Shown here piece after piece: positions 17,176-50,496 of a DNA stretch of 64,000 bases. The DNA is taken from IMG/VR virus record IMGVR_UViG_3300025135_000004, one strand, 5' to 3'. Made by a program: the position numbers and the translations under genes. Source of the stretch: an uncultured virus (IMG/VR IMGVR_UViG_3300025135_000004). Its lineage: Duplodnaviria; Heunggongvirae; Uroviricota; Caudoviricetes. The number at the start of each line of letters is the position of its first letter. Position 1 is the stretch's first letter. The notes beneath the pieces were generated by a model. The model was not told the DNA's origin, did no database searches, and saw only the letters and a list, made by a program, of their open reading frames with translations.

Positions 17176-17544
17176 TTATGTTTGAGATTGAACCTGGCTC
17201 TGTGACACACTTTGTGTCTGAGACTGCTCATCAGATTGAGGTTGATTTTGTTGCATCTGCATAATGGCAAGTTGTGACTGCTTAGCCATTTCAAGTTCTT
17301 TCTTGGATAGTTCAAGTCTGTCCCTGGTTATATCCATCTTTGTAATCCTTGCTTTTTTTTCATCTGGGTCAAGACCGCCAACTCTCACATCATTTTGCCT
17401 AAACTTTAGCTCAGCTTCAAGGGCCTTGATTTGCTCTTCATTAGACTTAATCATTTCCTTGCTAAGCTTTACTGGGTCTTCTCCAATTTCTTGCATAACC
17501 CTATACACCTCTTCTCTTATTATATTTCTAAGTGAATCATTCAT
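17176..17544 (-). CDS. Hypothetical coiled-coil (probably head-internal) protein
   Basis: N-terminal LRNIIREEV motif; Gln-rich tail. Confidence 0.55.
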   Translation of the reverse strand: MNDSLRNIIREEVYRVMQEIGEDPVKLSKEMIKSNEEQIKALEAELKFRQNDVRVGGLDPDEKKARITKMDITRDRLELSKKELEMAKQSQLAIMQMQQNQPQSDEQSQTQSVSQSQVQSQT

Positions 17545-18016
17545 TTGTCAACAATTTTTTAAATCTAATCTTCTGTTCTTTATAGTCATTTTTGAGCTCA
17601 TATTCCCAAACTCTCTCTAACTGAAAACCTCTTCCTTTCGCCAGAATATCTTTGAATACATCATTTCTCATATTCCTCAACTGCATCTTATTTAAGTCCT
17701 TAGACTCATATATAAGTGGATTTCCATGGAAATAATCTCCATCTATCTCAATTATCATATTTTTAGATGGTATGTAGAAATCAAATATCTTGTTTTCAAT
17801 AATCTTTTGAGTTTCAAATTCCACACCCAACTCATTCATCATACTGGCAAATATTCTCTCTGGCTCTGTCATTTTATTTGACATCTTATTGGCCATCCTA
17901 ATAAGTTTTTTCTCCTTTTTTAGCTTTGCCGCAGCTGGATTGGCACTTGCTATGGTTTTAGCCATTGCTTTTTTTACCAACTTACCATATAAACTTTTCT
18001 TTGGCATATTATGCAA
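17537..18016 (-). CDS. DUF559/Vsr-like PD-(D/E)XK endonuclease
   Basis: TEPERIF...FDFYIP..NMIIEIDGDYFH...RVWEYE pattern. Confidence 0.7.
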   Translation of the reverse strand: MHNMPKKSLYGKLVKKAMAKTIASANPAAAKLKKEKKLIRMANKMSNKMTEPERIFASMMNELGVEFETQKIIENKIFDFYIPSKNMIIEIDGDYFHGNPLIYESKDLNKMQLRNMRNDVFKDILAKGRGFQLERVWEYELKNDYKEQKIRFKKLLTNE

Positions 18017-25145: not shown

Positions 25146-27188
25146 TTATTGCCTTTTTCTGTTTCTCAAGAATTTCTCAATATCATTCATCAACTCCTCG
25201 TTGTCTTTCCCAAGTTGATTAGAACCGTCAATTAATGGATTTGACTTAGGAGTTTGAATTACCTCTTCTTGTATCACCGTTTTTCCAGCACCTCTTTTTA
25301 TGAGCCCATCATTAATGCTATTAATTAACTTTTGAGATTCAGACTTCATAGAATTACTTCTCTTGATTAATGCATTATCTTCAACCTTTGGCTTATGGAC
25401 CTTTGATTCATCTTCTCCAAGTAATTCAATAAGCATTCTATCTACATACTTATCAGATGCATGTTGAACCTTTCTAAATTTAGACTCAGCAATTGGGGCT
25501 GCCTCTTCTGGAGCCGCCTCAGCTTCTGCTCCACCAACTTCCCCTCCAACATCAGCACCAAAGTCAAGCTCTGCGGCATCACCGAAGCCTCCTCCGAAGC
25601 CTCCGCCTCCGCCTCCACCAATATCTCCGCCCTCTTCTGCGCCTTCACCACTTTGTTGAGCTTTCATCATTTCTTCAGCTCCCTCAATTTCAAATTTATC
25701 ATCAAGGTCTCTGAAAAGTCCAATCTTCTTATACATTTCAACAGCACTGTCAATTTCAGCAAATATTTTCTTCTCAACTTTTTTCTGCTTAAGAATAAGT
25801 TTAATCTCATTCTTAGAAAAACCAAGAATATTTTCCATCGCCCAAACATAAGATACAGGAGATGTTGCCTCTGCAGAGAACATTTCCTTGAATACCTCAA
25901 GCCTTGCCTTCATTGTCTCCAACTTAAGCAATTCCTGTTGAGTAGATGGATTGTTAAGTGTAAGTGTAAAATTATCTATCTCATCTTTAAACCCATTAAA
26001 ATAAAGATGAATATTCGCAATCCTCTTCAGTTCCGCAAGTATAGCTTGCTGAATCGTATTAATTGTACGAGCAAATCTAAGGTCTTGCTGAGAAAGTGTT
26101 GAACCTCCTGGTAGGGACTCTCCATAATTCAAGTAATTTTTAGGAACCTGAAGAGATGCAAATAATTTATTTTGAAGATATTCAATATCTTGTATGTCTC
26201 CAAGATTTGATGCACCTGGGAGGGTTTCAATCCTTGATGACCTCTCAGCTCTCATAGGAATGAAGTAATCCTCAGTTACGTTCATTGGATTATACTTCAA
26301 GTTGATATTGCCAGTTCTCTGGTCAACTATCGGCTGCTTCTTAAGTTGAATCTGAAATTGTTGTATAAACTGAGCAACGTCTGCGTGTTCAAGATTACCT
26401 ACGTCAATGTAAAATACTCTTCTTTCTGGAGCTCTTGTAATACGATACACAAGCATTGAGTCTTCAGCAAGTTGAAGTTGTTTCCAAAGTTTTCTTGCTG
26501 GGTCAAGAATTGAGCGTCCGTAAGGAAGTTTTCTTGTATCCTCCAAAAGTCTAAAGTGAGCAATCTGCCAATCTTCAAAATAATCTCCAGTGGTATCCCA
26601 CCTAAATCTTATGTTATCGGTTTTGCCTTCATACCCCTCTTCTCTGTGAATTTCTTCAGAAGGCAGTGCCATTATATCATAAATTCCCTCATTCTTGTCA
26701 ATTTGTAGATGAAGAAAGAAATCTCCATACTTTAACAAATCTCTAATCCATAATTTAAGCGCAAAATCAATGTCAAGTCTGTTGTAGAAAAGGTCTTCAA
26801 GAACAGTTTTTACTCTTGAGTTTTCAGAAAATATATCAAGAATTTTTCCTTTTTCCCCCCTGGTGATGCACTCATCTCTTATAATGTTAAGTGCAGCTGC
26901 GATTTCTGGCGACATATCCATCGCCCTAAAGTCGTTGTAGGCAGAAATTCTATCTGTATCGTAATAAATAGTTCTTGTATACAGGTCATGAGCAATTTTA
27001 TTAACTTGCCAATCTAAAAACTGCTGCTGAACATGTTCAATATTATTATTTTCACGCTGACGTAACCCACCGATAGTATTTTGTACAACGCCTGGATTCT
27101 CTACCTGCGGTGTTCTACGCTTATTTTTATTGATGGCGTTATTAACGCCACTGAAAATACTTAAGTTATTTTTATCTTCTCCCGCCAT
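25146..27188 (-). CDS. gp20: Portal protein (T4 gp20-like)
   Basis: LAEDSMLVYRITRAPERRVFYIDVGN, EDYFIP, IETLPG..NLGDIQDIEY. Confidence 0.95.
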   Translation of the reverse strand: MAGEDKNNLSIFSGVNNAINKNKRRTPQVENPGVVQNTIGGLRQRENNNIEHVQQQFLDWQVNKIAHDLYTRTIYYDTDRISAYNDFRAMDMSPEIAAALNIIRDECITRGEKGKILDIFSENSRVKTVLEDLFYNRLDIDFALKLWIRDLLKYGDFFLHLQIDKNEGIYDIMALPSEEIHREEGYEGKTDNIRFRWDTTGDYFEDWQIAHFRLLEDTRKLPYGRSILDPARKLWKQLQLAEDSMLVYRITRAPERRVFYIDVGNLEHADVAQFIQQFQIQLKKQPIVDQRTGNINLKYNPMNVTEDYFIPMRAERSSRIETLPGASNLGDIQDIEYLQNKLFASLQVPKNYLNYGESLPGGSTLSQQDLRFARTINTIQQAILAELKRIANIHLYFNGFKDEIDNFTLTLNNPSTQQELLKLETMKARLEVFKEMFSAEATSPVSYVWAMENILGFSKNEIKLILKQKKVEKKIFAEIDSAVEMYKKIGLFRDLDDKFEIEGAEEMMKAQQSGEGAEEGGDIGGGGGGGFGGGFGDAAELDFGADVGGEVGGAEAEAAPEEAAPIAESKFRKVQHASDKYVDRMLIELLGEDESKVHKPKVEDNALIKRSNSMKSESQKLINSINDGLIKRGAGKTVIQEEVIQTPKSNPLIDGSNQLGKDNEELMNDIEKFLRNRKRQ

Positions 27189-27237: not shown

Positions 27238-28983
27238 TTATCCCAAAAGCCAGCTTGTATCGTCTAAGTTGTCATCACTACCACCAATATTGATGTTATT
27301 CGTTCCGTTGAAGATATATAAACCACCCCCACCCTTAGGAATATCAACTCTCTTATTTGGATTGTTCGTCTCTGTTACTTTTCCAACAGTCGAACTGGCA
27401 TTCAACATCATTGCGTTGAGCATGCTCTTGTACATTTCTGTGCTGGCAGTAACATTTTCAAATTCAGTATCTCTTATGTACAATGCCAAGCCAAGAGCCA
27501 GAATAAGGTCATCATTAAAACCTGGTTCGTGCTCAGGCTTATCCCCATTCATGACAAATGTTTGAAACTCTGCCATTAATCTCTTGGAGTGAAGAATAAG
27601 AGAGTTTTCTCTCATGTGTTCAATAATGGCCTTGACAAGAAGTACCCTGTTTTTTCTTGATGTCTGGAATCCTGGTATCTCAGTTCCTTCATTAACTTTA
27701 TATGAATGATGTCTAACGTGTATGTCTTTGATATTTTTAGAAAAATATAACCTGTTTCTTGGATACTTGAATTTATCTCTTATATCGAAACAAACACCGA
27801 GACCAAATGAGTTTGCCTCAATTACAACATAGGCCATGTTATACATTCTCGCTATGTGATTAATTACAAAAGGAAACAAGTCTGGAGAAATCTTTTCTCT
27901 AAATTCAGCAACCTGCTCAAGAGTGTCAACATCAAGAATTTGTATTGTCGAGTAATCTTGTCCATCACCCCTGGCAACATCGGCCCCTAATATATATTGC
28001 CTGCCTTCTTCTGGTAATTTGAATATGGCCATATTCGTAACGTCACTAATTAAACTCGCAAAACTAAGTGGATTATCTTTTTCAAGATAATCAAATCTCA
28101 TGTAACCCTCCACCTTATGGTCATCCATGACTCTTGTGTGATATTTAGTTACAAGTTGAGGGTCTACCGCAAGTCTCTTAGACCCTTCAAATGAAAGGTC
28201 AAGCTCTTGGGCAATTTTAACGGAATCCCAATTTAATCTCTTACACTGAGATTCATACCAAGGACTCCACGCAACTTTTTCTCCACTTGGATTTAACTTA
28301 TACTCAAGACCATCAATACTATTGGGATTTTCGGTCCAATGAACCATGGTCCCCTCAAAGTCATTCTCATTATTAACAGCATCCACCCAAGTCTTGTAAT
28401 ATAAGTTACCAGTACCATTTGGAGTAGAAATCATTATACACTTACCTCCAGTCTGAGAAAGGGCCATACCAGCTCCCATCCAAATTGCCTCATCATCCTT
28501 AATAAAGGCAGTTTCATCAAGAACCAACATTGTAAGTGAATCTCCACGACCAGCATTCGGACTTGATGCCTTAGCTTCAGCGTATGAGTTATTTGAAAAG
28601 GATATTTTCTTTGTGTTGTTTTGTTCAATCTCATCTGGCTTTAGCCACACTGGAGTATGCTCAATAAACTGCTTAACAGTTTCAAGGAATCGAATAGCTC
28701 CAGCACCATCGTTGGCAATGATAAGAATCTTCTCATCATATCGAAACAAGAGTCTCCAAGCAACGTACCCAGCAGTAATAACTGATAGACCTGTCTGTCT
28801 CGACTTAAGAATTATACTATTTTGATATTTATGAAATTTTCTAAGACACTTATTTTGATATTCAAAACAAGTCATGGGAGTGACCATTTTTTCTTTCGCA
28901 TTAAATACATGCCCATATGTATTCATATAATACACAGGGTCTTTTGCACACTTCATGTACTCAAGCATTTTTTTATCTACCAT
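27238..28983 (-). CDS. gp17: Terminase large subunit (T4 gp17-like)
   Basis: KSRQTGLS, LVLDETAF, ISTPNG, GADVARGDGQDYS, IEANSFG, NDDLILA. Confidence 0.95.
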   Translation of the reverse strand: MVDKKMLEYMKCAKDPVYYMNTYGHVFNAKEKMVTPMTCFEYQNKCLRKFHKYQNSIILKSRQTGLSVITAGYVAWRLLFRYDEKILIIANDGAGAIRFLETVKQFIEHTPVWLKPDEIEQNNTKKISFSNNSYAEAKASSPNAGRGDSLTMLVLDETAFIKDDEAIWMGAGMALSQTGGKCIMISTPNGTGNLYYKTWVDAVNNENDFEGTMVHWTENPNSIDGLEYKLNPSGEKVAWSPWYESQCKRLNWDSVKIAQELDLSFEGSKRLAVDPQLVTKYHTRVMDDHKVEGYMRFDYLEKDNPLSFASLISDVTNMAIFKLPEEGRQYILGADVARGDGQDYSTIQILDVDTLEQVAEFREKISPDLFPFVINHIARMYNMAYVVIEANSFGLGVCFDIRDKFKYPRNRLYFSKNIKDIHVRHHSYKVNEGTEIPGFQTSRKNRVLLVKAIIEHMRENSLILHSKRLMAEFQTFVMNGDKPEHEPGFNDDLILALGLALYIRDTEFENVTASTEMYKSMLNAMMLNASSTVGKVTETNNPNKRVDIPKGGGGLYIFNGTNNINIGGSDDNLDDTSWLLG

Positions 28984-34192: not shown

Positions 34193-34975
34193 TTATTCCT
34201 TATACTTCCAAATGAAACCTCCAGAAGATTTCAACTCACCTCTTGCTGCTGAAGCTACATTTCCTATATGAAAACCACCTTCTTTTACTTGCGATAAAAA
34301 TTCATATTCTTTAATTAAATCACCTTCTTTATTAAATTGTAGCAAAATTTTTCTTTGACTTGATTCTTTACCATAATTTGGATTATTTTCTCCAAGCTGA
34401 GTATACCCTTTTCCATAAAAAGGATTCTTCTCTCCAATATTAGCTTGTCTTATTTTTTCTTTTGTCTTCTCAGAATGTTCCCTACCTTTTTGTGACTCAG
34501 ATGCATTTTCTCTCATTTCACTCGCTTTATCTTCTCCATAAATTTCAACCCATGATTTTCCTTTCCTGGATTTAGACATATTTTCTTTTTGTTCATCAGA
34601 CCACTTATTTCCATAATTAGGATTATTTTCTCCAGAAGTAGCTTTACTTAATTTGCTTTTGACATAATCATTGTGTTCATTAAGAAGTGGGTCCTTTAGA
34701 TTATAAGTATCTTTACTATTGATTCCTCCATAGTAGTCAATCCAAAACTTCTCTCGTAAATTTAAAGTAGACAAATCTTCTACTTCTTCTAAAATTTCAA
34801 AAACAAATTTATCTTCACCGTGTTTATTAAAAGACCTTTGCAAATGCTCATTGTGATGCTCGTTTCTTTTAATTCTATACAAGTGAATATTATATCTTGT
34901 TTTCAAATTCTCTGCCTGTCCAATATAGACCCTTCCATTAGTTGTATTTGTTATTTTATAAATTCCTGATTTCAT
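34193..34975 (-). CDS. GIY-YIG homing endonuclease with NUMOD3/NUMOD1-type DNA-binding repeats
   Basis: MKSGIYKITNTTNGRVYIGQA; GENNPNYG-type motif three times; HSEKTKEKIR; GGFIWKY. Start placed at 34975, behind a TATTTATA motif. Confidence 0.9.
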   Translation of the reverse strand: MKSGIYKITNTTNGRVYIGQAENLKTRYNIHLYRIKRNEHHNEHLQRSFNKHGEDKFVFEILEEVEDLSTLNLREKFWIDYYGGINSKDTYNLKDPLLNEHNDYVKSKLSKATSGENNPNYGNKWSDEQKENMSKSRKGKSWVEIYGEDKASEMRENASESQKGREHSEKTKEKIRQANIGEKNPFYGKGYTQLGENNPNYGKESSQRKILLQFNKEGDLIKEYEFLSQVKEGGFHIGNVASAARGELKSSGGFIWKYKE

Positions 34976-35000
34976 ACTAAGTTTTAAATTAATTATAAAT

Positions 35001-35034
35001 AAAAAAGACAAAGCAATCAAGCTTTGTCTTTTTA
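35001..35034 (-). terminator. Intrinsic terminator after tail fibre gene
   Basis: AAAAAGACAAAGC-AATCAA-GCTTTGTCTTTTT. Confidence 0.75.
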
Positions 35035-37794: not shown

Positions 37795-40473
37795 TTAGAA
37801 ATCCTCAAACCTTGCACCAGTCGGAAGAACTTGGAACGTAAGGTCGATGAATTCAGCTGTTCTTGTAGGCTGAAGTTGAATCTTACCAACCAATGTATTT
37901 CTATCAATTGTGTCTGCAGTGTTATTAGAATCATCCATAACAACCTTGAACGCAGTAAGACCTCTTTGATTTTGAATCTGAAGAAGAATCGGCTCAACTT
38001 TTGCAAGGAACTGGTCTCTCAATGTTTGGTCGTTTTGTTCGAACAATAGTGTAAGAGATGCAGCAGATACCAATCTTCTAACTTGAAGAAGCAATCTTCT
38101 GATGTTAATTCTGTCAAGAGCAGATTGTCTAACTTGAAGAGTTTTTTGTCCCCAGATAACAACACCTTGTTGTACAAATGTTGCGATTGGGTTAACTCTA
38201 CCTTGGTAAAGCGTATCTCTTTGGTTATTGTTCAATCTAACGTCAGCTCTAACAATTTGTGGTCCAGCAAGACCTCTGTTAAGACCTGCAGGAGCGAACC
38301 ATGGCGCAGCTACATTATCTGTAAGTGCATAAGTTTGAACCGCAAGCATTGTAGGAGCTTGATAAGTATATTTACCAGAGTTAGGGTCTTCAATTTGAAC
38401 CCATGGCCAGTATGTAGCAGCGTAGTTGCTGTCGATACCAGTTGCCTCAAGTCTTGAAACCACTTCTTCTGCTGTTCCTTTTATAGAACCTGAAGTAAGC
38501 CTTGGTGCATCCATTACATAGATTGCATCAGTTCTATCTTCTACAATGTCAAGAGCATATCTAACGATTGTTCTGTTATTGCTGAAGTCAACACCTGGAG
38601 TAGCAAGAACATTAATGTCTACTATTTCTGGATTAGCTATTTCATCAAGAGCTGACTTAAATGCATTTACATTTGATGTATAAGCATCTGTGAACTCATC
38701 AAAAAGCTCTGCGTATGATTGGTATTTATCCCATCCATCAAATCCACCTGCAGGAACCAAAGTAAACTTCAATTTATTTCTGTCGATAAGAGTTTGAGCA
38801 GCATTTGTATATCCAGTAAGTGAATCAACGTCTCCAGTAACGAAATCATTTGAATTCGCTGTATTCTCAAGGTGGAAACCTTTAATCACTCTTCTATCAG
38901 CTGATTCTCCTCCTTCGTAAACAAATAAGTCTAACTCGATATTCTTAACTGCATTTCTTGTAGAAACTTCATTAGCAGTAAAGTTAGTGTATCCAAGTTC
39001 AGAAATTCCAAGGAATGTTTTAAATACTGAGTCACCAGAAAGGTATCCTGTCTTGTAATAGATGTCAGCCGAAGTTGAACCTGATAAACCAGACTCTCTT
39101 AAGCTATAACCTCTAAATCCAGCAGGAACAGTGTTTCTTGGGAAAGAAGGTGCCAAGTCAATTGTAATGAAATTTGATTTTCTTGGATATTCTTCATCTG
39201 TTGTACCGATTACCTTAGCGATGTAATTTGAGTCTTCTTCTCTAAGAGAAAGATTAGACCATCTTTCAAGCGCTGTTGATGATGCAGTAGCATCTGTATC
39301 TTCAAATCTTCTTACGATGATGTCAAAAGTGTAATTGTTAATGTCGATATTTGCAATCGAAATCTTAATTTCATTATTAGATGCATCACCATCAGAGATA
39401 GTTTGAACTCTAAATAGATTTTTTACGTCTCCACCAATAACTCTTGATACCACCCAAGGTGTTACAGCGTTAGTGTATGAATTTTGAAAATCTGTATATG
39501 AAGTTTCTTCAGTGTAAACAAGCTCTGGATTAATATTTCGAATATCTTTTACTGATTCTGCTTGTCTAATGAAGTGAGGATAAATTCTCTCTACATAAAG
39601 ATTTGAAGTTCCTTCAATCACTTCAGGGTTTTTACCAAGAATCTTCACAATGTAATCTTCTCTTGTTTCGTCAAGTGAAATAGTGAAACCGCTATTTGTT
39701 TGTGCTGTAAGTGGACCAGTAGTTGCACTCAACATGAATGAACCAAGGGTTGTAGTTATAGCGCCAATAGTTACATCACTCTGTTCATCGAGATAAAAAG
39801 AATTTGTAATTTGATTTCTCTTACTTCTAAGAACTGCAAGTGTAGCACCAGATTTTGGAGTTGGCTCAACGTCTGACACAACAAGTGACCACGTTCCATC
39901 TCCAAGAGTTGTAACAGTATCGCTTGTAGTTGTAATTCCAAGAGCAACATAATCTGGGTCTAAAGAAAGGGCTGTATTAACTTCGCTTGAAATTACTGTA
40001 CCGCTATAGTTAATTACAACATCATTTCCAACTGTATATGCACTCACTGTTCCATCGGCCATTGTAGACTCTGTGATAGAAGAGAAGTTGTAAGTAATTG
40101 GAGCAAGAGCGCCTGTCTTAGTAAATGTAAGTCCACTAAATGTTGATGTTCCTGAAAAAGTTTCTGATAAACCAGCAACTATTAACCAAGCTGGTGAATT
40201 TTCAAAACCACTGGTACCAAGAACTCTGGTAACAGTTAATTCATTAGACTGTGCTAAGAATGAATTAGCCACGTATGGTAGTGGATAATCTGGGTCAGTA
40301 GACCCGAATCTAAGCAAGTAGTCATCTGTAGTTCTTATTTTAATTGGTTCGAAGGCTGGTCCCTTAAGGGTTTTTCCTACAACTCCCAATCTTGTAATAC
40401 CTATTCTTGATGCAAAGATTGTGAAGTCTTGCTCTCTTGTGAAAACACCAGGTGAAACAAATATTGTTGCCAT
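37795..40473 (-). CDS. gp18: Contractile tail sheath protein (T4 gp18-like)
   Basis: FVSPGVFTREQD, GKTLKGPAFEP, YAATYWPW, PWFAPAGLNRG, WGQKTLQ...LDRINIRRL, AEFIDLTF. Confidence 0.95.
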   Translation of the reverse strand: MATIFVSPGVFTREQDFTIFASRIGITRLGVVGKTLKGPAFEPIKIRTTDDYLLRFGSTDPDYPLPYVANSFLAQSNELTVTRVLGTSGFENSPAWLIVAGLSETFSGTSTFSGLTFTKTGALAPITYNFSSITESTMADGTVSAYTVGNDVVINYSGTVISSEVNTALSLDPDYVALGITTTSDTVTTLGDGTWSLVVSDVEPTPKSGATLAVLRSKRNQITNSFYLDEQSDVTIGAITTTLGSFMLSATTGPLTAQTNSGFTISLDETREDYIVKILGKNPEVIEGTSNLYVERIYPHFIRQAESVKDIRNINPELVYTEETSYTDFQNSYTNAVTPWVVSRVIGGDVKNLFRVQTISDGDASNNEIKISIANIDINNYTFDIIVRRFEDTDATASSTALERWSNLSLREEDSNYIAKVIGTTDEEYPRKSNFITIDLAPSFPRNTVPAGFRGYSLRESGLSGSTSADIYYKTGYLSGDSVFKTFLGISELGYTNFTANEVSTRNAVKNIELDLFVYEGGESADRRVIKGFHLENTANSNDFVTGDVDSLTGYTNAAQTLIDRNKLKFTLVPAGGFDGWDKYQSYAELFDEFTDAYTSNVNAFKSALDEIANPEIVDINVLATPGVDFSNNRTIVRYALDIVEDRTDAIYVMDAPRLTSGSIKGTAEEVVSRLEATGIDSNYAATYWPWVQIEDPNSGKYTYQAPTMLAVQTYALTDNVAAPWFAPAGLNRGLAGPQIVRADVRLNNNQRDTLYQGRVNPIATFVQQGVVIWGQKTLQVRQSALDRINIRRLLLQVRRLVSAASLTLLFEQNDQTLRDQFLAKVEPILLQIQNQRGLTAFKVVMDDSNNTADTIDRNTLVGKIQLQPTRTAEFIDLTFQVLPTGARFEDF

Positions 40474-42588: not shown

Positions 42589-43788
42589 TTAGTAAATCCA
42601 AATTTTCATTGGCACATAAGCAAGTGTCTTATTTACAGACTCTTGTACAGCAGCACGTTTTTCCATTATTCTATCATAAGACAATTCCTCAAGGTCTTTC
42701 TCAAGTTTATCAAGTAATTTTTGTTGGTCTTCTCTACCTGTGCTAATAAGGTCATCTTTGTTTAGTGTAAGCTCGGCCCCTGGAATTGGTAATTGCCCAT
42801 TAAATTTACCTCTAATACCGATTCCAAGTAATTCTTTTGCAAGCGCTTGAGCATATTTCTTAACCCAAGTTTGAGCAACCGAATTGAGTTGATACCAGTT
42901 TATGTAGTTAAGTTCTGCATCACCAGGCCCAGATACAAGACCATTCCCTTGTTGTATGGTTCCATCAATATTAGTGGTTCCTGTAAATCCAGGATTTGCT
43001 GTATAACCGCTGTAATTAGAGTTTCCATAATTTCCAGCTCTATCTCTGTAAGTGTAGAACATTGTTCCTGGAGTACCAGCTCCACCTCCAATTCCTAAAC
43101 TTGGTCCAGCAACACTGTTTACCCCATTTCTTGGTACTGGAAATAATTTTAAAATTTTTGTTCCGTCAGCACCTGGCCTTATTAGATAGTGGTATTCTGA
43201 ACCTCTAACTCTATTTCTTAATTCAGCAGCCTGAGCTGTCATGATTGTATCAAATACAGGCATCACACTATAGAGAGAGTGCCCCGCAAATGAAGCACCA
43301 AATTCACTGAAAGCTATATTTTGATTGCTGAATGGGTCAAGACCAAAAAGATTTATAAAAGCAGGTGTGTACCAAAGAATATCTAAAACTTCTCTTTCAG
43401 CAGGAATTATATAGTCCTGAGTACCAGCAGTTAGGGTAATTGAAGTTGTTTTGACTTCTCTGGTTCCATTTGCTCCAAGACCTATTTGCTCACCAATTTG
43501 AGTAGCAAAAGAATTTTCGAAGTAAAGAGAATTAGAAACATATTTTAGAGTAAAATCAACCTCAGAAGGGAGGCCAAGCATCTCTCCGAGTCTATTTCTA
43601 AGAACCCAATCGTTAATGTATCCTGAGTACTCCTCTACTGCTTCACAGATACATTCTTCTATCTGTTCATCAAGAAGTTCTACTCCCATTACAGGCGCAC
43701 CAAGTTTCCTCCTAATCCTACGAAAGATTTGGTTTTTCTCGGTTACAGTCATTCCTGTAAGACATCCTTCTGCGCAAAAAACACTCAT
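42589..43788 (-). CDS. gp13: Neck protein (T4 gp13-like)
   Basis: IRRKLGAPVMGVEL.DEQI, WVKKYAQALAKELLG...GKF..PIPG.ELTLN. Confidence 0.8.
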   Translation of the reverse strand: MSVFCAEGCLTGMTVTEKNQIFRRIRRKLGAPVMGVELLDEQIEECICEAVEEYSGYINDWVLRNRLGEMLGLPSEVDFTLKYVSNSLYFENSFATQIGEQIGLGANGTREVKTTSITLTAGTQDYIIPAEREVLDILWYTPAFINLFGLDPFSNQNIAFSEFGASFAGHSLYSVMPVFDTIMTAQAAELRNRVRGSEYHYLIRPGADGTKILKLFPVPRNGVNSVAGPSLGIGGGAGTPGTMFYTYRDRAGNYGNSNYSGYTANPGFTGTTNIDGTIQQGNGLVSGPGDAELNYINWYQLNSVAQTWVKKYAQALAKELLGIGIRGKFNGQLPIPGAELTLNKDDLISTGREDQQKLLDKLEKDLEELSYDRIMEKRAAVQESVNKTLAYVPMKIWIY

Positions 43789-43795
43789 AATTTAT

Positions 43796-44080
43796 TTATC
43801 CTCTTAAAGATTGAATATAATTTGGTTGAAACGAAGCCTTAAATCCTACAAAAGCTCCAGAAGAAACAATCACCTTGGCACATACTACATCTATTTTTTG
43901 CCCTGCAGTTGCATTCCAAGTAAAAGTTCCGCCACCCATGGCGCTAATAGTAGCGGCTCCAGTAGTAGTACAGAAAATTTGATGTACTGTAGAACCAGTC
44001 AATCCATCACCAAGTTCAGCAAGTGTATAAGTTCCAATTGGCATAGGTAGTGCGGTCCAATTTGTGTTGTGAAAAGCCAT
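43796..44080 (-). CDS. Small capsid decoration / spike-base-like protein
   Basis: 94-aa beta-rich protein; HQIFCTTTGAATISAMGGGTFTW..TAGQKIDVVCAKV resembles head spike-base proteins; late motif upstream. Confidence 0.45.
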   Translation of the reverse strand: MAFHNTNWTALPMPIGTYTLAELGDGLTGSTVHQIFCTTTGAATISAMGGGTFTWNATAGQKIDVVCAKVIVSSGAFVGFKASFQPNYIQSLRG

Positions 44081-44151
44081 AATTATAATTTTCTTATAAA
44101 TAGGCTAAGAAAACTTGATTCACAATAACAAGTTTTGAAAATTGATAAAAT

Positions 44152-44182
44152 TTTGATTTAATCGAAAAAAAAGATACATTTG
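44152..44182 (+). promoter_or_regulatory. Bacteroidota sigma70-type (early) promoter heading the plus-strand island
   Basis: TTTG (44152-55), 19 nt, TACATTTG (44175-82). Confidence 0.75.
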
Positions 44183-44198
44183 TAATTAAATTATTACA

Positions 44199-44861
44199 AT
44201 GAGAATATTTTTTTTAGATATAGATGGAGTTCTAAATGACTGTAATTCCACAGGTGTATTCCACGAAAATTCAACAGATATTTACTGCATAGCAATTTTA
44301 AATGAAGCAATTAGAAGAGTTGGTGCAAAAATTGTAATTATTTCCTCATGGAAGGATAACTTTGATTTTCAAGTAGTTAGAGATTTATTATATCAAAGAG
44401 GTGTACTTGCGGGAAGTATTATTGATTCCACAGAGCGTGATATTTCTAAGGAACAGGGAATCAAAAATTTTCTGGAGCATTCTCAGGTCGAAGATTTTGT
44501 TATAATTGACGATAATTTAGAGCTTCAAGACCCAGTGTTAAAAAATTTTTGCGTCCGAACCGACTCTCATAGTGGTTTAGTTCCAGAAGACCTGGACCGA
44601 ATAATCAATAAAATGGAGCAAATAATAAAAGCACCATTTACACAGAACCAAGTTGATAAGTTAAATAAAAATCAAAAATCAAGCGGATTCCACCCATTTA
44701 CTTGTTGTTCACCAGATGATATACCTGATTGTAAAAGAAAGAAAAAAGAAGGTGAAACTTTTGAAGAGCGAGAGGGTATTTTGATTGCAACAAATGATGG
44801 CTGGATTTGTCCTTGCGGAAAATATCAGCAAGATTGGGCACATTCATTTATGGTAAAATAA
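44199..44861 (+). CDS. HAD-superfamily (Swiss-Army-knife RNA-repair type) domain fused to a Cys-rich C-terminal domain
   Basis: FLDIDGVLN, IVIISSWK, FVIIDD, GL; then MEQIIKAPFT...HPFTCC...LIATNDGWICPCGKYQQDWAH. Confidence 0.75.
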   Translation: MRIFFLDIDGVLNDCNSTGVFHENSTDIYCIAILNEAIRRVGAKIVIISSWKDNFDFQVVRDLLYQRGVLAGSIIDSTERDISKEQGIKNFLEHSQVEDFVIIDDNLELQDPVLKNFCVRTDSHSGLVPEDLDRIINKMEQIIKAPFTQNQVDKLNKNQKSSGFHPFTCCSPDDIPDCKRKKKEGETFEEREGILIATNDGWICPCGKYQQDWAHSFMVK

Positions 44862-44872
44862 TAGTTAAATAT

Positions 44873-45106
44873 ATGGCAAGATTTGCAATACAACATGAGC
44901 CAACGAAGCGTTGGGTACAAGAAGATGAATCAGGAGTTTTCCTTCAGGAAGATGATAATTATCTCTTTTCTTATAAGACCAAAGATTTAGCTCAGAAGGC
45001 TATTGACGAACACTATAAAGTGTACTACACAACTCTTGGTAGTGATAACTTTGAGACTGAGGATGGTCCTTATCCGTTTGAGGAATTTAATATCGTTGAA
45101 GTTTAA
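44873..45106 (+). CDS. Small hypothetical protein
   Basis: ATG 44873 (MARFAIQHE) after an A-rich leader; the stop overlaps the first hairpin element. Confidence 0.6.
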   Translation: MARFAIQHEPTKRWVQEDESGVFLQEDDNYLFSYKTKDLAQKAIDEHYKVYYTTLGSDNFETEDGPYPFEEFNIVEV

Positions 45107-45228
45107 TGGTACGCAGGTTTAGTTAGTTGCGTGAATATAGAAAACTTAAATTGAAACACAAATGATAAATTGGATTAAAAACTTATTTAGAAGCAAGGAT
45201 AAGCAACCAACCAAACCTGCGGTTATAC
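45104..45228. repeat. attC-like hairpin element 1
   Basis: TAAT, 5 nt, GCAGGTTTAGTTAGTTGC (45113-30) ... GCAACCAACCAAACCTGC (45203-20), 1 nt, GTTATAC. Confidence 0.75.
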
Positions 45229-45377
45229 ATAGTATTACTTGCGGTGAACGAGATGAAAAAGGATTTTGTGATACTTATGTAAATGGTGAAAAGACAAAAG
45301 TTAGGATGCTCGTATTTACAGAGGAAGAAGTTGCACGACTTCACAAAATCCAAGACGATATAAATGATAGCAAGTAA
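45162..45377 (+). CDS. Small hypothetical cassette ORF starting inside hairpin 1
   Basis: 71-aa ORF; its stop TAA is part of the TAAC of element 2. Confidence 0.55.
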   Translation: MINWIKNLFRSKDKQPTKPAVIHSITCGERDEKGFCDTYVNGEKTKVRMLVFTEEEVARLHKIQDDINDSK

Positions 45378-45470
45378 CGTGACGCAACTAACAGAAGTGG
45401 TTGCTTGTAAGAACTTCTGGATTAAAAACAAATGCTCGTAGCAGCCACTTCTGTTAGTTGCTGTTATAGG
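45375..45470. repeat. attC-like hairpin element 2
   Basis: TAAC, 5 nt, GCAACTAACAGAAGTGGTTGCT (45384-405) ... AGCAGCCACTTCTGTTAGTTGC (45440-61), 1 nt, GTTATAGG. Confidence 0.85.
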
Positions 45471-45487
45471 CTGTAAAAATTACGATT

Positions 45488-45706
45488 ATGGAAGAAGAAA
45501 TAATTGGAACGACTGGCAAACTTGTAGATTTATTTAACGAAAATCTCACACAAGAAGAATGGAACGCACTATGTATTGTTCATAGATTAGGTGCGAGGTT
45601 AAATGTGGGAATAAGATTTGATTGGAGTAAAAGTATTGATGTGCGTTCAGAAGAATGCTCGCAAATTATTGATGAAAGCGTTTTTCTTGACAGAGAACGT
45701 AAGTAA
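45488..45706 (+). CDS. Small hypothetical cassette ORF
   Basis: 72-aa ORF filling the space between elements 2 and 3. Confidence 0.6.
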   Translation: MEEEIIGTTGKLVDLFNENLTQEEWNALCIVHRLGARLNVGIRFDWSKSIDVRSEECSQIIDESVFLDRERK

Positions 45707-45718
45707 TTTTATTGCTTA

Positions 45719-45847
45719 TAACGGTTGGGTGTATATGTAGTGTGAGATTTGAAACACTGAACTTTGACTTAACCGATGAACTTAATTAGAAGTAGAAATG
45801 ATGAATATACCACCGAACATCACATTACATATACACCTTGTTATCGG
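45719..45847. repeat. attC-like hairpin element 3
   Basis: TAAC, 5 nt, GGTGTATATGTAGTGTGA (45728-45) ... TCACATTACATATACACC (45820-37), 2 nt, GTTATCGG. Confidence 0.85.
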
Positions 45848-45937
45848 CTGATGCGGTTTATCTACCTGAATTTCAATACGAAGAACTAAAGAAGTTTTTA
45901 TTTTTTTAGGGTGAGAAGAAAAATAATTAAAAATAAA

Positions 45938-45969
45938 TTTGGTAGTTACGAAACTTTATCGTATATTTG
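45938..45969 (+). promoter_or_regulatory. Bacteroidota sigma70-type promoter internal to a cassette
   Basis: TTTG (45938-41), 20 nt, TATATTTG (45962-69). Confidence 0.75.
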
Positions 45970-45996
45970 TCGTATAATAATTAAAACAACAAGATT

Positions 45997-46197
45997 ATGG
46001 GAATTACACAAATGACATCTCGTGAGGCTATTAATGCCATTGAATCTGCAATTAAAAGCGGAAACAAAAAGAAAGTATTGGAATTATACGCTCCCGATAA
46101 TTCAGACGTGTTGCCTGATTGGGATAACGAGCCTGATTACATTTGGGAAGAATGGGTAGAATTAATTGAAAAAGCAGAACAAATATTGGGATTATGA
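45997..46197 (+). CDS. Small hypothetical protein
   Basis: 66 aa; ATGA overlap with the next ORF. Confidence 0.65.
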   Translation: MGITQMTSREAINAIESAIKSGNKKKVLELYAPDNSDVLPDWDNEPDYIWEEWVELIEKAEQILGL

Positions 46198-46379
46198 AAA
46201 CAAGAGAAATAAAACATAATGAGGTGCTTCCAATCGGAACAAAAGTTATTCACAATACAACAAAAGAAATTGGAGTAGTGATTGGTGAATGTTTAGGGTA
46301 TGGAAAAGTAAAGGTTAAATACAAAGAAAATGAAATGTGGTATCCACAACCAAAACGCAACATAAGTTTGGTATTATGA
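46194..46379 (+). CDS. Small hypothetical SH3/KOW-like protein
   Basis: LPIGTKVIH...IGVVIG..GKVKVKY; ATGA overlaps at both ends. Confidence 0.55.
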   Translation: MKTREIKHNEVLPIGTKVIHNTTKEIGVVIGECLGYGKVKVKYKENEMWYPQPKRNISLVL

Positions 46380-46546
46380 AACGAATTGAAATACATCTAA
46401 CAGAAGATGAAACTAAATTACTTGACCAAATCGCAAGTGATGATGGTAGAAGCAGAAAGAACTTGTGCGAAACTGAAATTCGTAAGTTAATCGAGCGTTG
46501 GCAAAAAATAAAAACTTCTAACGATAATGTTAATATGAAGAAGTAA
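46376..46546 (+). CDS. Ribbon-helix-helix DNA-binding protein
   Basis: MKRIEIHLTEDETKLLDQIASDDGRSRKNLCETEIRKLI: alternating beta strand plus helix-GRS-helix pattern. Confidence 0.75.
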   Translation: MKRIEIHLTEDETKLLDQIASDDGRSRKNLCETEIRKLIERWQKIKTSNDNVNMKK

Positions 46547-46561
46547 TGTAGCATTTGCCGA

Positions 46562-46616
46562 TAACACAAAAATTGTCGCCAGTGCGAAGCATTGAGACAA
46601 TTGACTGTTATCAGCC
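46562..46616. repeat. attC-like hairpin element 4 (short)
   Basis: TAAC, 5 nt, AATTGTC..CAGTGC-GAA-GCATTG.GACAATT, 4 nt, GTTATCAGCC; capped by a GCGAAGC mini-hairpin. Confidence 0.75.
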
Positions 46617-46649
46617 GTTTTAATGGCTGCTCCACCAAGTGTTATAAAC

Positions 46650-46685
46650 AAAAAAAGGACCCTCTTTCGAGAATCCTTTCTTTTA
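46650..46685. terminator. Terminator between the convergent island and major capsid gene
   Basis: A-tract, AAAGGA.CTC-TTTC-GAG.ATCCTTT, T-tract. Confidence 0.65.
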
Positions 46686-46720
46686 GTTTATGATTATTAA
46701 ACTTTCCTGCTCCTTTCGGA

Positions 46721-48394
46721 TTAGTACTTGTTAATGTTATCAATGTATACAACTCCGTAGAACCTGTTGTTAACCATTTTCTTAGCGTAACGAGTCATGA
46801 TACCTTTTCTTGGTGTGAAATCGTTAGGGTCAGTGATAGTTTGTGTCAACTGAAGAGGGATGTACGGTGCGTAGATGTAACCTGCTTCAAGGAAAGTGTT
46901 ACCTTTGTGTCCAAGAAGAACGATGTTAGCTGGAAGATAAGGGTCTTTGTAAACCACGTATCTTGAACCAAGATTACCGATTTTTTCTACTCCAAGGTTA
47001 TACTTTTCGCTTTCTGGAGCTGCGCTACCATCAACGTGGAAGTATTCCAAGTCATCAAAGATTGCTCCTGCTTCTGCAGAACATACAATCCAGTTTGCAC
47101 CACCTCTAAGGGTTGCTTTGTGAATCTGCGCTGAAAGCTCGTTGATTCTTGTGATAAGAGTCTGGTTCCAGTCTTTTTGAGTTCCGAAGAAGTTCGCATT
47201 ACTGTTAAGACCAGCGTAATTCCATCTTGCTCTGAACGGTGCTCCGTTGATAAGGTCGATGATAATTTCTCTATCAATTTCCGCTGCAACGTGCTCAGAA
47301 AGAAGAGCAGTAAGCTCAGCTTCAGCATCAATTGAGTGGTATGCTTCAAGGTCTTGAGCAAGTTCTGGAGTCCAGTGAGCTCTAAGTTTTCTTGTTACAG
47401 TGTTTACAGTTACAGATGAGAATCTGATTGTAAGTTCAGCCATTTCAGACTTAGCTTCAAGGTCATTGAAGATTTCGTAAGCTGGCAAGAATGTTACAGC
47501 AAATGCTGAACCAAAGTTAGTACCATCATTAAGCATGTTTGCATTAAAGTCTGCACCATATACACCTGCTGGTCTAAGGTCAAGAACTATTCTTGCAACA
47601 CCATCTGCATATTGGTCTTGTGCCCAAGTTTGTACTGAAGAGTAGAAAGGAATATTTCCTCCTTCTGCAACCACAAGTACGTTTCCTGCTGCACCTGAGT
47701 AATAGATGTCAGTTGTAGCTGAGAATCTAAGAGTTGCAGATGATTGTTGCTTGCTTGTGTCAAAACTTGTTAAAGTAGTTGCAGTGTTCAAAAGTCCACC
47801 TACAAATAAATCAGCTGTTGGAGCAAGTTGTGCTTCTGTTACTGTGAAACCAGTTCCGAATGACATGTCAAACCCTTGGTTGTTGTAGAAACGCTCGTAA
47901 GCAGTTGTGTCAGCAAAATTAGGACCTGCTTGTCCGTTAGCTGTGTTTTGTGGAGCAACGATGTCTCTTGTTCCTGTTCCGTTAACGATTCCTGGAGGGG
48001 TAGCGTTAAAAGAAGTATCGTCACCGTTGTAAGATACTCTTGCATCCATGTAGAACAAAAGTCCAGAAGGAAGAGCCAATGGCTGTACAGATACGATTTC
48101 GTTAGCAAGTAATCTTGAGAATACTCTTCTTACGATTGGGAATGCTACTGTGTCGAAACGACCCGCAGATGAATCAAGAGTTACCTCGTTCAACATTGCT
48201 GCTGCCTGGTTCTCAAGAAGCTGTGCTACGTTAGCAGCTTTTATACCTTTCATTCTTATTGGGGTACCATCATTTGTATACCCTTCATCAAGAAGTCCAG
48301 AATCAGACCAACTATCTACGATAGCTTTTCTTTGCTCAGCCAAGTTTTTGAAGACTGTAAGTCCAACTTTACCTGAATTTAATAATTCGCTCAT
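46721..48394 (-). CDS. gp23: Major capsid protein (T4 gp23-like)
   Basis: AQLLENQA, FPIVRRVF..LLANEIVSVQP, TRKLRAHWTPELAQDLEAYHSIDAEAEL, YAPYIPL, FTPRKGIMTRY. The true start is probably ATG 48394. Confidence 0.97.
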   Translation of the reverse strand: MSELLNSGKVGLTVFKNLAEQRKAIVDSWSDSGLLDEGYTNDGTPIRMKGIKAANVAQLLENQAAAMLNEVTLDSSAGRFDTVAFPIVRRVFSRLLANEIVSVQPLALPSGLLFYMDARVSYNGDDTSFNATPPGIVNGTGTRDIVAPQNTANGQAGPNFADTTAYERFYNNQGFDMSFGTGFTVTEAQLAPTADLFVGGLLNTATTLTSFDTSKQQSSATLRFSATTDIYYSGAAGNVLVVAEGGNIPFYSSVQTWAQDQYADGVARIVLDLRPAGVYGADFNANMLNDGTNFGSAFAVTFLPAYEIFNDLEAKSEMAELTIRFSSVTVNTVTRKLRAHWTPELAQDLEAYHSIDAEAELTALLSEHVAAEIDREIIIDLINGAPFRARWNYAGLNSNANFFGTQKDWNQTLITRINELSAQIHKATLRGGANWIVCSAEAGAIFDDLEYFHVDGSAAPESEKYNLGVEKIGNLGSRYVVYKDPYLPANIVLLGHKGNTFLEAGYIYAPYIPLQLTQTITDPNDFTPRKGIMTRYAKKMVNNRFYGVVYIDNINKY

Positions 48395-48483
48395 TTTTAA
48401 AAGTTTTAATTTGTTTAACAATAAATATGTTTAAAAAAAGTGTTTTCTAATTTTTATTCACTTTTTTAGCGAAAAACATATTT

Positions 48484-49827: not shown

Positions 49828-50496
49828 TTATTTATTTCTCCAAAAATCATTGTTAGATAATTGTTGTATTTTCTGGTATTGAGACAACTTTTCTTGTACC
49901 CCCTCAGTGGTTAATACCCCTGTAGATTGTGAAAGAGGAATCATTCCCACTCCCAATGTTTTATGACCCTTACCCTCTTTGAATAGATAAGCCCCTGGAG
50001 TAGATGGTGATGATACAAAGTCAAATGCAATCAATTCAAAGTCTTCTTGTACAATATCTTGGTCTCCCTTGTTTTTTACAGAACCAACACCTCTTGATGA
50101 AATACCAAGCATGAATCCAGCCTTAAGAAGTCCTTTAAGAATTTGTCCAGCAGGAGTCTCCTCAGCGATAAGGACCTTCCCATAAAGGTCTTTTCCTTGC
50201 CACCACATTTCTGTAACTCTATGTGATACATTTGCAAGAGAAACAACAGCTGAATCTGGGTGGTCAAGTTCTCCACCTGCAGTGTGATTTTCGACAAGCT
50301 CCATGTATTTATTAACTTCTCTTCTCAAGATAGCTTCTGGATATACTCTTCCATTTCTATTTAATTGGTCAGCTTTTTGTAGAATACCAGTCATGATAAG
50401 CGGCTTACCAGTTTTTTCAGATTCAATTATAAGTTCCTTTGGACACTTGAATTCGTAGAATTCTGAAATAATATACTTTTCGTTATTAGTTATCAT
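49828..50496 (-). CDS. gp21: Prohead protease (T4 gp21-like)
   Basis: NRNGRVYP, GELDHP, VSHRV, TPAG, GISSRGVGS, DFVSSPS. Confidence 0.95.
   Translation of the reverse strand: MITNNEKYIISEFYEFKCPKELIIESEKTGKPLIMTGILQKADQLNRNGRVYPEAILRREVNKYMELVENHTAGGELDHPDSAVVSLANVSHRVTEMWWQGKDLYGKVLIAEETPAGQILKGLLKAGFMLGISSRGVGSVKNKGDQDIVQEDFELIAFDFVSSPSTPGAYLFKEGKGHKTLGVGMIPLSQSTGVLTTEGVQEKLSQYQKIQQLSNNDFWRNK

Follow-up and report, generated by a model that had tools for sequence, protein, structure and literature searches.

A probable integrase-less array of integron-type cassettes in the neck-capsid gap of a T4-like phage

A stretch of 64,000 nucleotides (nt) from an uncultured tailed virus (IMG/VR record IMGVR_UViG_3300025135_000004), hereafter the window, is part of a T4-like myovirus and carries a small island of genes and palindromes between its neck and capsid genes. 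Positions 45104-46629 of this window are probably a short array of integron-type cassettes without an integrase, inserted in a hypervariable neck-capsid gap. The array holds three to four cassettes and, with no recombinase in the window, is classed as a cluster of attC sites lacking an integron integrase (CALIN): three sites supported by an independent covariance model (R2, described below) lie within 750 bp, and no recombinase was found among the window open reading frames (ORFs) that were scanned. The host is a Flavobacterium-type bacterium, and the phage is lytic and T4-like. An integron-like cassette array had been proposed from the letters of the window alone (the sequence-only reading), and that proposal is now supported by membership of the elements in the R2 family, by a rule that ties the flanks of successive sites, by cassette-sized differences between cultured phages, and by bacterial arrays linked to a recombinase.

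The island spans 2.6 kb of the + strand between a neck-side gene of 94 amino acids (aa; 43796-44080) and the Gp23-family capsid gene (46721-48421, − strand), and consists of a HAD-family gene, six small ORFs, and four palindromes. A repeat search and a geometry scan both recovered the palindromes where the sequence-only reading had placed them:

45104-45225, + strand: attC-type element 1, with an atypical core TAAT; arms 45112-45130/45203-45221 (19 nt, 89%; 17/19 paired); loop 72 nt
45375-45466, + strand: attC-type element 2, TAAC, 5 nt, arms 45384-45405/45440-45461 (22 nt, 95%; 21 paired), loop 34 nt, 1 nt, GTTA
45719-45843, + strand: attC-type element 3, TAAC, 5 nt, arms 45728-45745/45820-45837 (18 nt, 94%; 17 paired), loop 74 nt, 2 nt, GTTA
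46562-46610, + strand: attC-like element 4, short (49 nt), at the array end; arms 46557-46566/46606-46615 (10 nt, 90%)

The geometry scan describes all four as TAAC or TAAT, 4-5 nt, arm, loop, arm, 0-4 nt, and GTTA, and the stems of elements 1-3 contain 17-21 paired bases. The complementary end cores of an attC site are present as TAAC...GTTA in elements 2-4 and as TAAT...GTTA in element 1, with AAGTAAC, TTATAAC, and CGATAAC on the 5′ side and GTTATAG, GTTATCG, and GTTATCA on the 3′ side. The unpaired spacers are asymmetric, with 4-5 nt on the 5′ side versus 0-2 nt on the 3′ side; no extrahelical bases were singled out as such. The suggestion that structure rather than sequence is conserved holds for the arms, which differ between elements, but not for the loops and cores, which share sequence. 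The 12-mer TGTTATMRGCYG has exactly three exact matches in the 64 kb, each at the 3′ end of an element, and a motif around an ATG is common to the loops of elements 1 and 3 and of a long element in the relative L003.

When folded as single-stranded DNA (+ strand) and compared with 200 shuffles each, element 2 reached z −5.7 (0/200 as good) and element 3 z −2.2 (5/200), with elements 1 and 4 both at z −1.4 (18/200 and 20/200, respectively). By energy alone, elements 2 and 3 out-fold their shuffles and elements 1 and 4 do not. The window contains 13 hairpins with at least 13 matched pairs, and only elements 2 and 3 among them carry the cores, the others being A/T-rich or terminator-like. Rfam has no family for the hairpin region, its top match being mir-2797 at 27.1 bits against a cut-off of 74.

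The elements of the window belong, as judged by sequence comparison, to one covarying attC-type family that is widespread in Bacteroidota. A scan of viral contigs with the loop motif returned 12 stretches, of which five lay in hairpins of the same geometry and one in a contig identical to the window; the other six were rejected, five because they fell in an unrelated coding region and one for want of a hairpin. A second motif scan returned more than 119 stretches, and among the 80 examined clear elements appeared in one contig only. Over whole viral contigs the elements occur in tandem, and in otherwise unrelated contigs the blocks of homology coincide with TAAC...GTTA, as in a block of 124 nt at 93.5% identity with both flanks different. 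The consensus structure of 22 aligned elements has 23 pairs, of which 16 show pair-keeping changes on both sides; G.U is conserved at two positions (21/22 and 18/22 sequences), and a C.A mismatch is also conserved. The end cores are invariant in all 22 members except for the C to T change in element 1.

Two covariance models were built. R1, from the 22-element alignment, counts the three window elements among its training set; it matched those three, 11 elements in Flavobacterium phage mumin9-1 and 14 in sniff9-1, and its strong matches all lay on the gene-bearing strand. Two elements of contig G003 (a and b) were in the training set yet were not listed by the default-filter R1 search. R2 was built from 57 elements of five bacterial chromosomal arrays only, one of them adjoining an integron-type tyrosine recombinase, and run with filters off on both strands, and since it was trained on bacterial sites alone it provides an independent test of membership for the window elements. 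It found element 3 at 68.7 bits (E 2.8e-15), element 2 at 49.5 (E 2.3e-10), and element 1 at 34.1 (E 1.9e-6), while the next-best match in the 64 kb on either strand had E 0.13. Elements 1-3 score 34-69 bits on the + strand and at most 14 bits on the − strand. A covariance-model scan, which the sequence-only reading had proposed, thus places such elements nowhere else in the 64 kb. Outside the window they were seen in L003 and other viral contigs, in 27 records of cultured Flavobacterium phages, and at no fewer than 141 bacterial loci.

Arrays can take up a large part of a phage genome: in mumin9-1 (L230 2337-8238) and sniff9-1 (L232 1860-9275) about a fifth of the 38-kb siphovirus genome is one array, with 11 and 14 sites, respectively, and three to four methyltransferase genes. 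Viral contig G002 contains a half element (L094 19043-19172) in which the loop and 3′ arm are kept before a methyltransferase gene and the 5′ arm has been replaced; this gene is orthologous to one in L171.

The flanks of successive elements obey a simple rule: the 16 nt that start with GTTA behind one element are matched by the 16 nt, reverse-complemented, that close with TAAC ahead of the next. At least 12 of 16 positions match in 75 of 89 adjacent pairs (mean 12.7), compared with 7/102 for the two flanks of the same element (mean 8.0) and 212/10,213 (2.1%) for all other pairs. The rule holds in 29/33 phage, viral, and window pairs and in 46/56 bacterial pairs; in the window it holds at two of three junctions, from element 2 to 3 and from 3 to 4 (13/16 each). 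At position 11, 69/75 matching junctions have G in one flank and A in the other, so that the + strand forms a G.T pair and the − strand a C.A mismatch. Units that had once been circles opened inside the core, as in integrons, would be expected to have such complementary ends.

Genome comparison shows that near-identical cultured phages have gained or lost single cassettes, the junction falling in the TAACG core. The genomes of mumin9-1 and mumin6-3 differ by 506 bp between flanks of 309 and 292 nt that are 100% identical, and those of sniff9-1 and sniff9-2 by 434 bp between flanks of 615 and 452 nt, likewise 100% identical. In both indels the extra piece is one hairpin and the ORF or ORFs behind it, and each junction falls in a stretch, TAACGTT or ATAACG, that two successive hairpins with unlike arms have in common at their 5′ ends. 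The structure of these indels shows that the unit is a hairpin with its downstream gene and that the exchange point lies in the TAAC core. We had also considered a cassette composed of a gene and the hairpin that follows it, with crossover at G|TTA behind the hairpin as in the sequence-only reading; the two phage indels, together with the counts of start codons in loops given below, led us to reject it in favor of an exchange in the TAAC(G) core in front. Methyltransferase content varies among these Flavobacterium phages and correlates with plating efficiency (Nilsson et al. 2020), and the words hairpin, palindrome, integrase, and indel are absent from the main text of that study.

The cassettes of the window, with the features next to them, are as follows, the boundaries of cassette 2 being assigned by analogy with the mumin and sniff phage indels:

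44152-44182, + strand: promoter-like motif TTTG-N19-TACATTTG, an exact pattern match ahead of the + strand island
44199-44861, + strand: HAD-family gene, 220 aa, with a Cys-rich C-terminal extension (Pfam HAD_SAK_2, E 2.1e-20); upstream of the array, no bounding hairpins
44876-45106, + strand: small ORF, 76 aa, with a TAA stop that forms bases 1-3 of the element 1 core; weak PHROG match (E 1.9e-4)
45162-45377, + strand: ORF, 71 aa, with its start ATG (45162) in the element 1 loop, ending in the TAA of the element 2 core
45378-45721, + strand: cassette 2, element 2 and a 72-aa ORF (45488-45706), with the element 2 and element 3 cores as its limits
45722-46564, + strand: cassette 3, element 3, a promoter-like motif, and three small ORFs; junction rule 13/16 with a 9-nt exact prefix
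46612-46629, + strand: terminal small hairpin CAGCC-N8-GGCTG, directly behind element 4; folded
46648-46690, no strand assigned: A-run/stem/T-run hairpin separating the island from the capsid gene, terminator-like and bidirectional, seen by eye and not listed by the automated terminator scan

The small ORFs do stop at or just before each TAAC, as had been noted from the letters: the stops at 45104-45106 and 45375-45377 are TAA inside the cores, and the other two lie 13 and 16 nt upstream. Cassette 3 contains ORFs at 45997-46197, 46194-46379, and 46379-46546, the last of which resembles ribbon-helix-helix proteins (RHH_1, E 9.3e-4, below the Pfam cut-off). Family searches gave no match for the 71-aa ORF. 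DNA methyltransferases are frequent cargo in other contigs and phages; the cassettes of the window contain none. The HAD_SAK_2 protein has an 80-residue Cys-rich C-terminal extension that the relative L001 lacks, its gene stopping after residue 141. The host-type promoter proposed at 44152-44182 is an exact match to TTTG-N19-TAnnTTTG, which we take to be the promoter consensus, but such matches occur in the window at chance frequency (with one mismatch, 17 found versus 18.1 expected). A sigma-70 promoter scan of the window was also at chance level, and a terminator scan was uninformative. The idea that the cassettes are promoterless does not hold for all of them, as the third has a promoter-like motif with one mismatch at 45939-45969 and the ORF that follows element 1 has its start codon in that element's loop. 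No core-only (attI-type) site was recognised upstream of element 1, where the array begins. The terminal hairpin has a counterpart in L003, CAGAC-N8-GTCTG, in which both sides have changed and the pair is kept, and a terminator-like hairpin after the capsid stop is present in every relative.

The layout of these arrays is reversed between phages and bacteria. The longest open frame between consecutive elements lies on the strand matched by the model in 29/29 phage and viral segments, and on the opposite strand in 52/56 bacterial segments, indicating that in bacteria a gene is followed by its site and in phages the site stands before its gene. For the three short segments of the window this crude longest-frame measure gives 1/3 on the model strand; the start-bearing ORFs and family matches of the island are on the + strand. 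An ATG in the loop opens a frame of at least 50 codons that exits the element in 19/33 long phage elements versus 5/60 bacterial ones, and the frame relative to GTTA varies among these ORFs, which fits a hairpin and gene being one unit. In the window, a start codon in the loop is found in element 1, where it opens the 71-aa ORF; the loop of element 2 is short, with the ORF beginning 22 nt past the element, and the loop ATGs of element 3 open short frames only (17 and 37 codons). Phage cargo is thus coded on the best-folding strand, with the site preceding the gene and often supplying its start codon. The hosts lack Shine-Dalgarno-led initiation, which is the context in which these loop start codons would act. 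Our literature search, which left some supplements and the Dryad file of Qi et al. outside its reach, found no account of the reversed layout, of start codons in loops, of the 16-nt rule for flanks, or of Flavobacterium phages that differ by cassette indels.

A pattern built from the family consensus matched at least 141 bacterial loci, which by title are almost all Bacteroidota. A few of the matches fell in contigs of metagenome-assembled genomes labelled Saccharibacteria, Gammaproteobacteria, Bifidobacteriaceae, and Ignavibacteriaceae, and may be chance, binning errors, or real spread. One array is that of Flavobacterium sedimenticola, with 25 elements in ~19.5 kb (L374:7614 to L375:10791, contig ~263.6-284.8 kb). 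Its sites are uniform (123-140 nt), its cargo lies on the opposite strand, and it ends in a core-only site complementary to the last flank followed by the gene of a 345-aa XerA/IntI-like tyrosine recombinase, co-directional with the cargo. This is apparently a complete chromosomal integron. With NF040815, 'tyrosine recombinase/integron integrase', the recombinase reaches 228.5 bits (cut-off 220); with the integron-integrase model TIGR02249 it stays under the cut-off, at 202 bits versus 265. Homologues adjoin elements in six more bacterial contigs, with the same relative orientation in 5/5 checked, and four further matches are partial. Similar arrays were noticed in F. qiangtangense, F. odoriferum, and a Bacteroidota chromosome. 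Among 56 viral loci that encode a relative of the bacterial recombinase, six contain elements (E up to 1e-4), and in five of these the elements lie just upstream of the recombinase gene on the same strand. A recombinase in contig G002, ~2.9 kb from an element, is weak against integron-type models (39 bits) and was not used as evidence. Bacteroidota were long thought poor in integrons, with one complete integron in Bacteroidetes proper, in Salinibacter, in the parts of Neron et al. 2022 that we draw on; reviews, as far as covered, count Bacteroidota among the phyla with integrons.

From these observations a mechanism can be outlined. The unit is a folded site followed by its cargo, the site comprising a TAAC-G core, an unpaired spacer of 4-5 nt, a stem of 17-22 bp in which G.T wobbles are conserved, a loop, and a T-GTTA core. 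A tyrosine recombinase of the IntI/Xer kind would recognise the folded + strand and exchange strands at TAA|C, cassettes being excised as circles and inserted at another site. This enzyme would come from the host, from a co-infecting phage, or from the phage's own genome beyond the window; with no recombinase in the window or in the phage genomes named below, action in trans from a host or another phage is plausible. This particular phage would by the same route capture and shuffle cassettes, and its array may be active or a fossil.

The same locus was compared among T4-like relatives, starting from 80 viral contigs with a related capsid protein; the gap was measured in the eight of the 12 closest in which the neck-side gene was also found. 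It measures 109, 122, 1715, 1723, 2109, 3237, 6663, and 7775 bp, compared with 2640 bp in the window, and this wide spread marks the locus as hypervariable. Gene order in the gap is accordingly not identical in relatives, as the sequence-only reading would have it. The closest relative, L001 (capsid 90% identical), lacks window positions 44603-46648 and is devoid of such hairpins. In L003 (capsid 84%), a C5 methyltransferase gene has a long element ahead of it and a second element behind it. R1 matched two elements in L003 and none in the other eleven T4-like relatives searched. The homology between the window and L003 begins at 46561, one base ahead of the element 4 TAAC at 46562. In L005, L006, L008, and L011, where the gap is short or empty, TATAAATAG lies just beside the capsid terminator hairpin; it resembles the T4 late-promoter consensus.

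Metagenome contigs add to this picture, the comparison covering four runs only, one of them perhaps the source sample, with uncovered parts uninformative. In each of the four runs, many contigs contain stretches with a likeness of at least 90% to elements 2 and 3, the cargo between them being mostly uncovered. For look-alikes of element 3, homology ends at 45718/45719 and 45843/45844, the outer edges of the element. A 342-nt lake-water contig contains a 91%-like copy of the region of the 71-aa ORF, and this copy ends at 45377, in the TAA of the next core. The breakpoints at cores anticipated by the sequence-only reading are thus seen in the L003 homology, in the ends of element 3 look-alikes, and in the two phage pairs one cassette apart. 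In the probable source run the island is present in assembly pieces around element 3, which fits the IMG/VR contig that ends at 45975. Contigs in all four runs also join the arms of element 3 directly (window 45742-45823), skipping its ~80-nt loop; the supporting sides are 20-22 nt long and the joints were not used, and if they are real, long- and short-loop versions of one site would coexist.

Could cassettes be shuffled without a dedicated enzyme? The phage's own homologous or microhomology recombination between similar hairpins, as proposed for the stem-loops known as PeSLs (below), might suffice, as T4-like phages recombine avidly, no integrase is encoded in the window or in three complete phage genomes, and the indel junctions are direct repeats of 6-7 nt. 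Past these 6-7 nt of core, however, the hairpin pairs at the indels have no common arm sequence, homologous exchange would not be expected to produce flank complementarity with a conserved G/A at position 11 in 69/75 junctions, and a recombinase stands beside the bacterial arrays and some viral ones (6/56 loci). We regard enzyme-free shuffling as unlikely. Somewhat less likely again is that the hairpins are RNA elements only, serving as start-presenting leaders, processing sites, or stabilisers with no role in DNA recombination. In favor of such a role, the strand that folds in phages corresponds to the mRNA and has conserved G.U pairs, a loop ATG opens a long frame much more often in phage elements (19/33) than in bacterial ones (5/60), and no recombinase is encoded in cis. 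Bacterial members, by contrast, are antisense to their cargo (52/56 segments) and stand beside a recombinase, the indels are cassette-precise at the core, the junction rule ties flanks hundreds of bases apart, and homology blocks of unrelated contigs end exactly at TAAC and GTTA. A role as RNA may exist alongside the role as DNA. Finally, miniature inverted-repeat transposable elements landed between genes would be dispersed over many contexts with sharp ends and terminal inverted repeats, as these elements are, and are nevertheless a very improbable explanation, given arms that are wholly different between copies yet complementary, flanks that show no direct target duplication and match from one copy to the next, and indels that take a hairpin and a gene rather than a hairpin alone.

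Several observations weigh against an integron-type array in the window. The geometry itself, with stems of at least 9, is at chance level (14 matches versus a mean of 10.15 over 20 shuffles), as is a short-stem geometry scan of 967 kb of relatives' loci (15 matches versus 11-14 in shuffles); geometry alone was therefore dropped as a search criterion, and the case is built on comparison and on the stems of elements 1-3, with their 17-21 bp. Integron cores have the full consensus RYYYAAC/GTTRRRY, from which the window elements depart; element 1 has TAAT in place of TAAC. Contig G004, with GCCTAAC/GTTAGGC, and some other relatives do fit this consensus, and Qi et al. 2023 (PMC9892861), in the part covered, give the core form as G|TTRRRY. 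The junction from element 1 to 2 departs from the flank rule (6/16), and element 4 alone is not significant with R2 (12.1 bits, E 0.85); its support comes from the L003 homologue with compensatory changes, the junction with element 3 (13/16), and the start of L003 homology at 46561. The left breakpoint relative to L001, at 44603, lies inside the HAD gene (residues 1-141 are common) and not at a core. The 6-7 nt direct repeat at the phage indels could also yield deletions by replication slippage. No tyrosine or serine recombinase was found among the 61 ORFs scanned in the 64-kb window, as the sequence-only reading had said of an integrase, nor in the complete genomes of mumin9-1, sniff9-1, and P12002L; the 46-kb contig identical to window 43500-45975 likewise lacks one. 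Lastly, the look-alike site P12002L_attC1 is the one of six phage sites that did not recombine with IntI1, while P12002L_attC2 did (PMC9892861, in the part covered).

Set against these points, an integrase-less array of integron-type cassettes remains the reading that best joins the family membership, flanks, and indels. The outcomes that the sequence-only reading had named as counting against it (identical gene order in relatives with no breakpoints at the cores, elements occurring nowhere else, behavior only as terminators or RNase III sites) are not what was found, and that first reading is supported.

The closest known counterparts are the phage CALINs of Qi et al. 2023 (PMC9892861), of which the part covered reports 17, some in virulent phages and with methyltransferase cargo, and recombination of 5/6 phage attC sites with IntI1. 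These are integrase-less attC hairpin arrays in lytic phages, including Polaribacter phage P12002L (Flavobacteriia), whose P12002L_attC1 has the same geometry as the window elements: TAAC, 5 nt, arm, loop, arm, 2 nt, TGTTAGGC. This site lies on the coding strand of the flanking methyltransferase genes. The window array differs in being in a T4-like myovirus between structural genes, with sites mostly of 92-125 nt and large loops, and the site-before-gene order, loop start codon, 16-nt flank rule, and isolate cassette indels are not described in the parts of PMC9892861 covered here.

Sedentary chromosomal integrons offer a second likeness, as the Bacteroidota arrays have a recombinase, a core-only site, up to 25 ORF-attC cassettes, and uniform sites; the window differs in lacking a recombinase and attI and in having its cargo on the opposite strand relative to the site. 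Integrons with the integrase co-directional with the cassettes go by the group name 'inverted integrase'. A sedentary group of this orientation is mentioned in PMC8352920 (in the part covered).

In T4-type phages, short intergenic stem-loop modules are also known from the promoter-early stem-loops (PeSLs), which Arbiol and colleagues reportedly described in 2010 as lying in hyperplastic regions and which are thought to shuffle small gene modules. PeSLs share with the window their place in variable regions of such phages; they differ in being conserved in sequence and acting by homology, whereas in the window the arms vary, the unit is defined by cores and flank complementarity, and the family is common to bacterial recombinase-linked arrays. 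A conserved early promoter with a conserved stem-loop, the mark of a PeSL, was not seen in the window, where the arms are unconserved and the sigma-70 scan does not exceed chance. Class 1 integrons have a recombination site, attI1, that likewise provides translation initiation, supplying signals (ORF-11) for a cassette gene; a phage cassette differs in having the start codon within the loop of its own attC-type site, so that codon and gene travel together.

Family searches place further structural and packaging genes of the phage elsewhere in the window:

25146-27188, − strand: portal
27238-28983, − strand: terminase
37795-40473, − strand: sheath
49828-50496, − strand: prohead protease

The closest named phage is Flavobacterium phage vB_FspM_immuto, the match being confined to part of the capsid gene at 88% identity. 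T4-like phages usually use a family B polymerase; the replicative polymerase candidate here (20682-24770, − strand, 1362 aa) differs, being a fusion in which an exonuclease of the RNase_T type is joined to a PHP domain and a bacterial DNA polymerase III alpha core. A GIY-YIG/NUMOD3 homing-endonuclease-like gene (34193-35020, − strand) and a Vsr/DUF559-like endonuclease gene (17537-18016, − strand) lie amid structural and replication genes.

A wider picture has, in our estimate, about even chances of being right: Bacteroidota phages would run their own version of the integron, in which the hairpin stands before the gene with its start codon and the cargo, with the recombinase gene where present, lies on the folding strand. 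The 38-kb siphoviruses and the T4-like myoviruses would share a cassette pool in which anti-restriction methyltransferases abound, through an Xer/IntI-like enzyme of host or phage acting in trans, and the window would be one landing site of a phage-wide network distinct from the bacterial pool.

An array of this kind in the window would mean that even lytic phages stock accessory genes as integron-type cassettes, here in a lytic T4-like phage with a site family common in Bacteroidota chromosomes and phages. The cultured Flavobacterium phages that stand one cassette apart also differ in methyltransferase content. With its reversed layout and loop start codon, the recombination site would double as an expression signal, and if a recombinase acting in trans moves the cassettes, phages would have a direct route for swapping anti-defence and other accessory genes.

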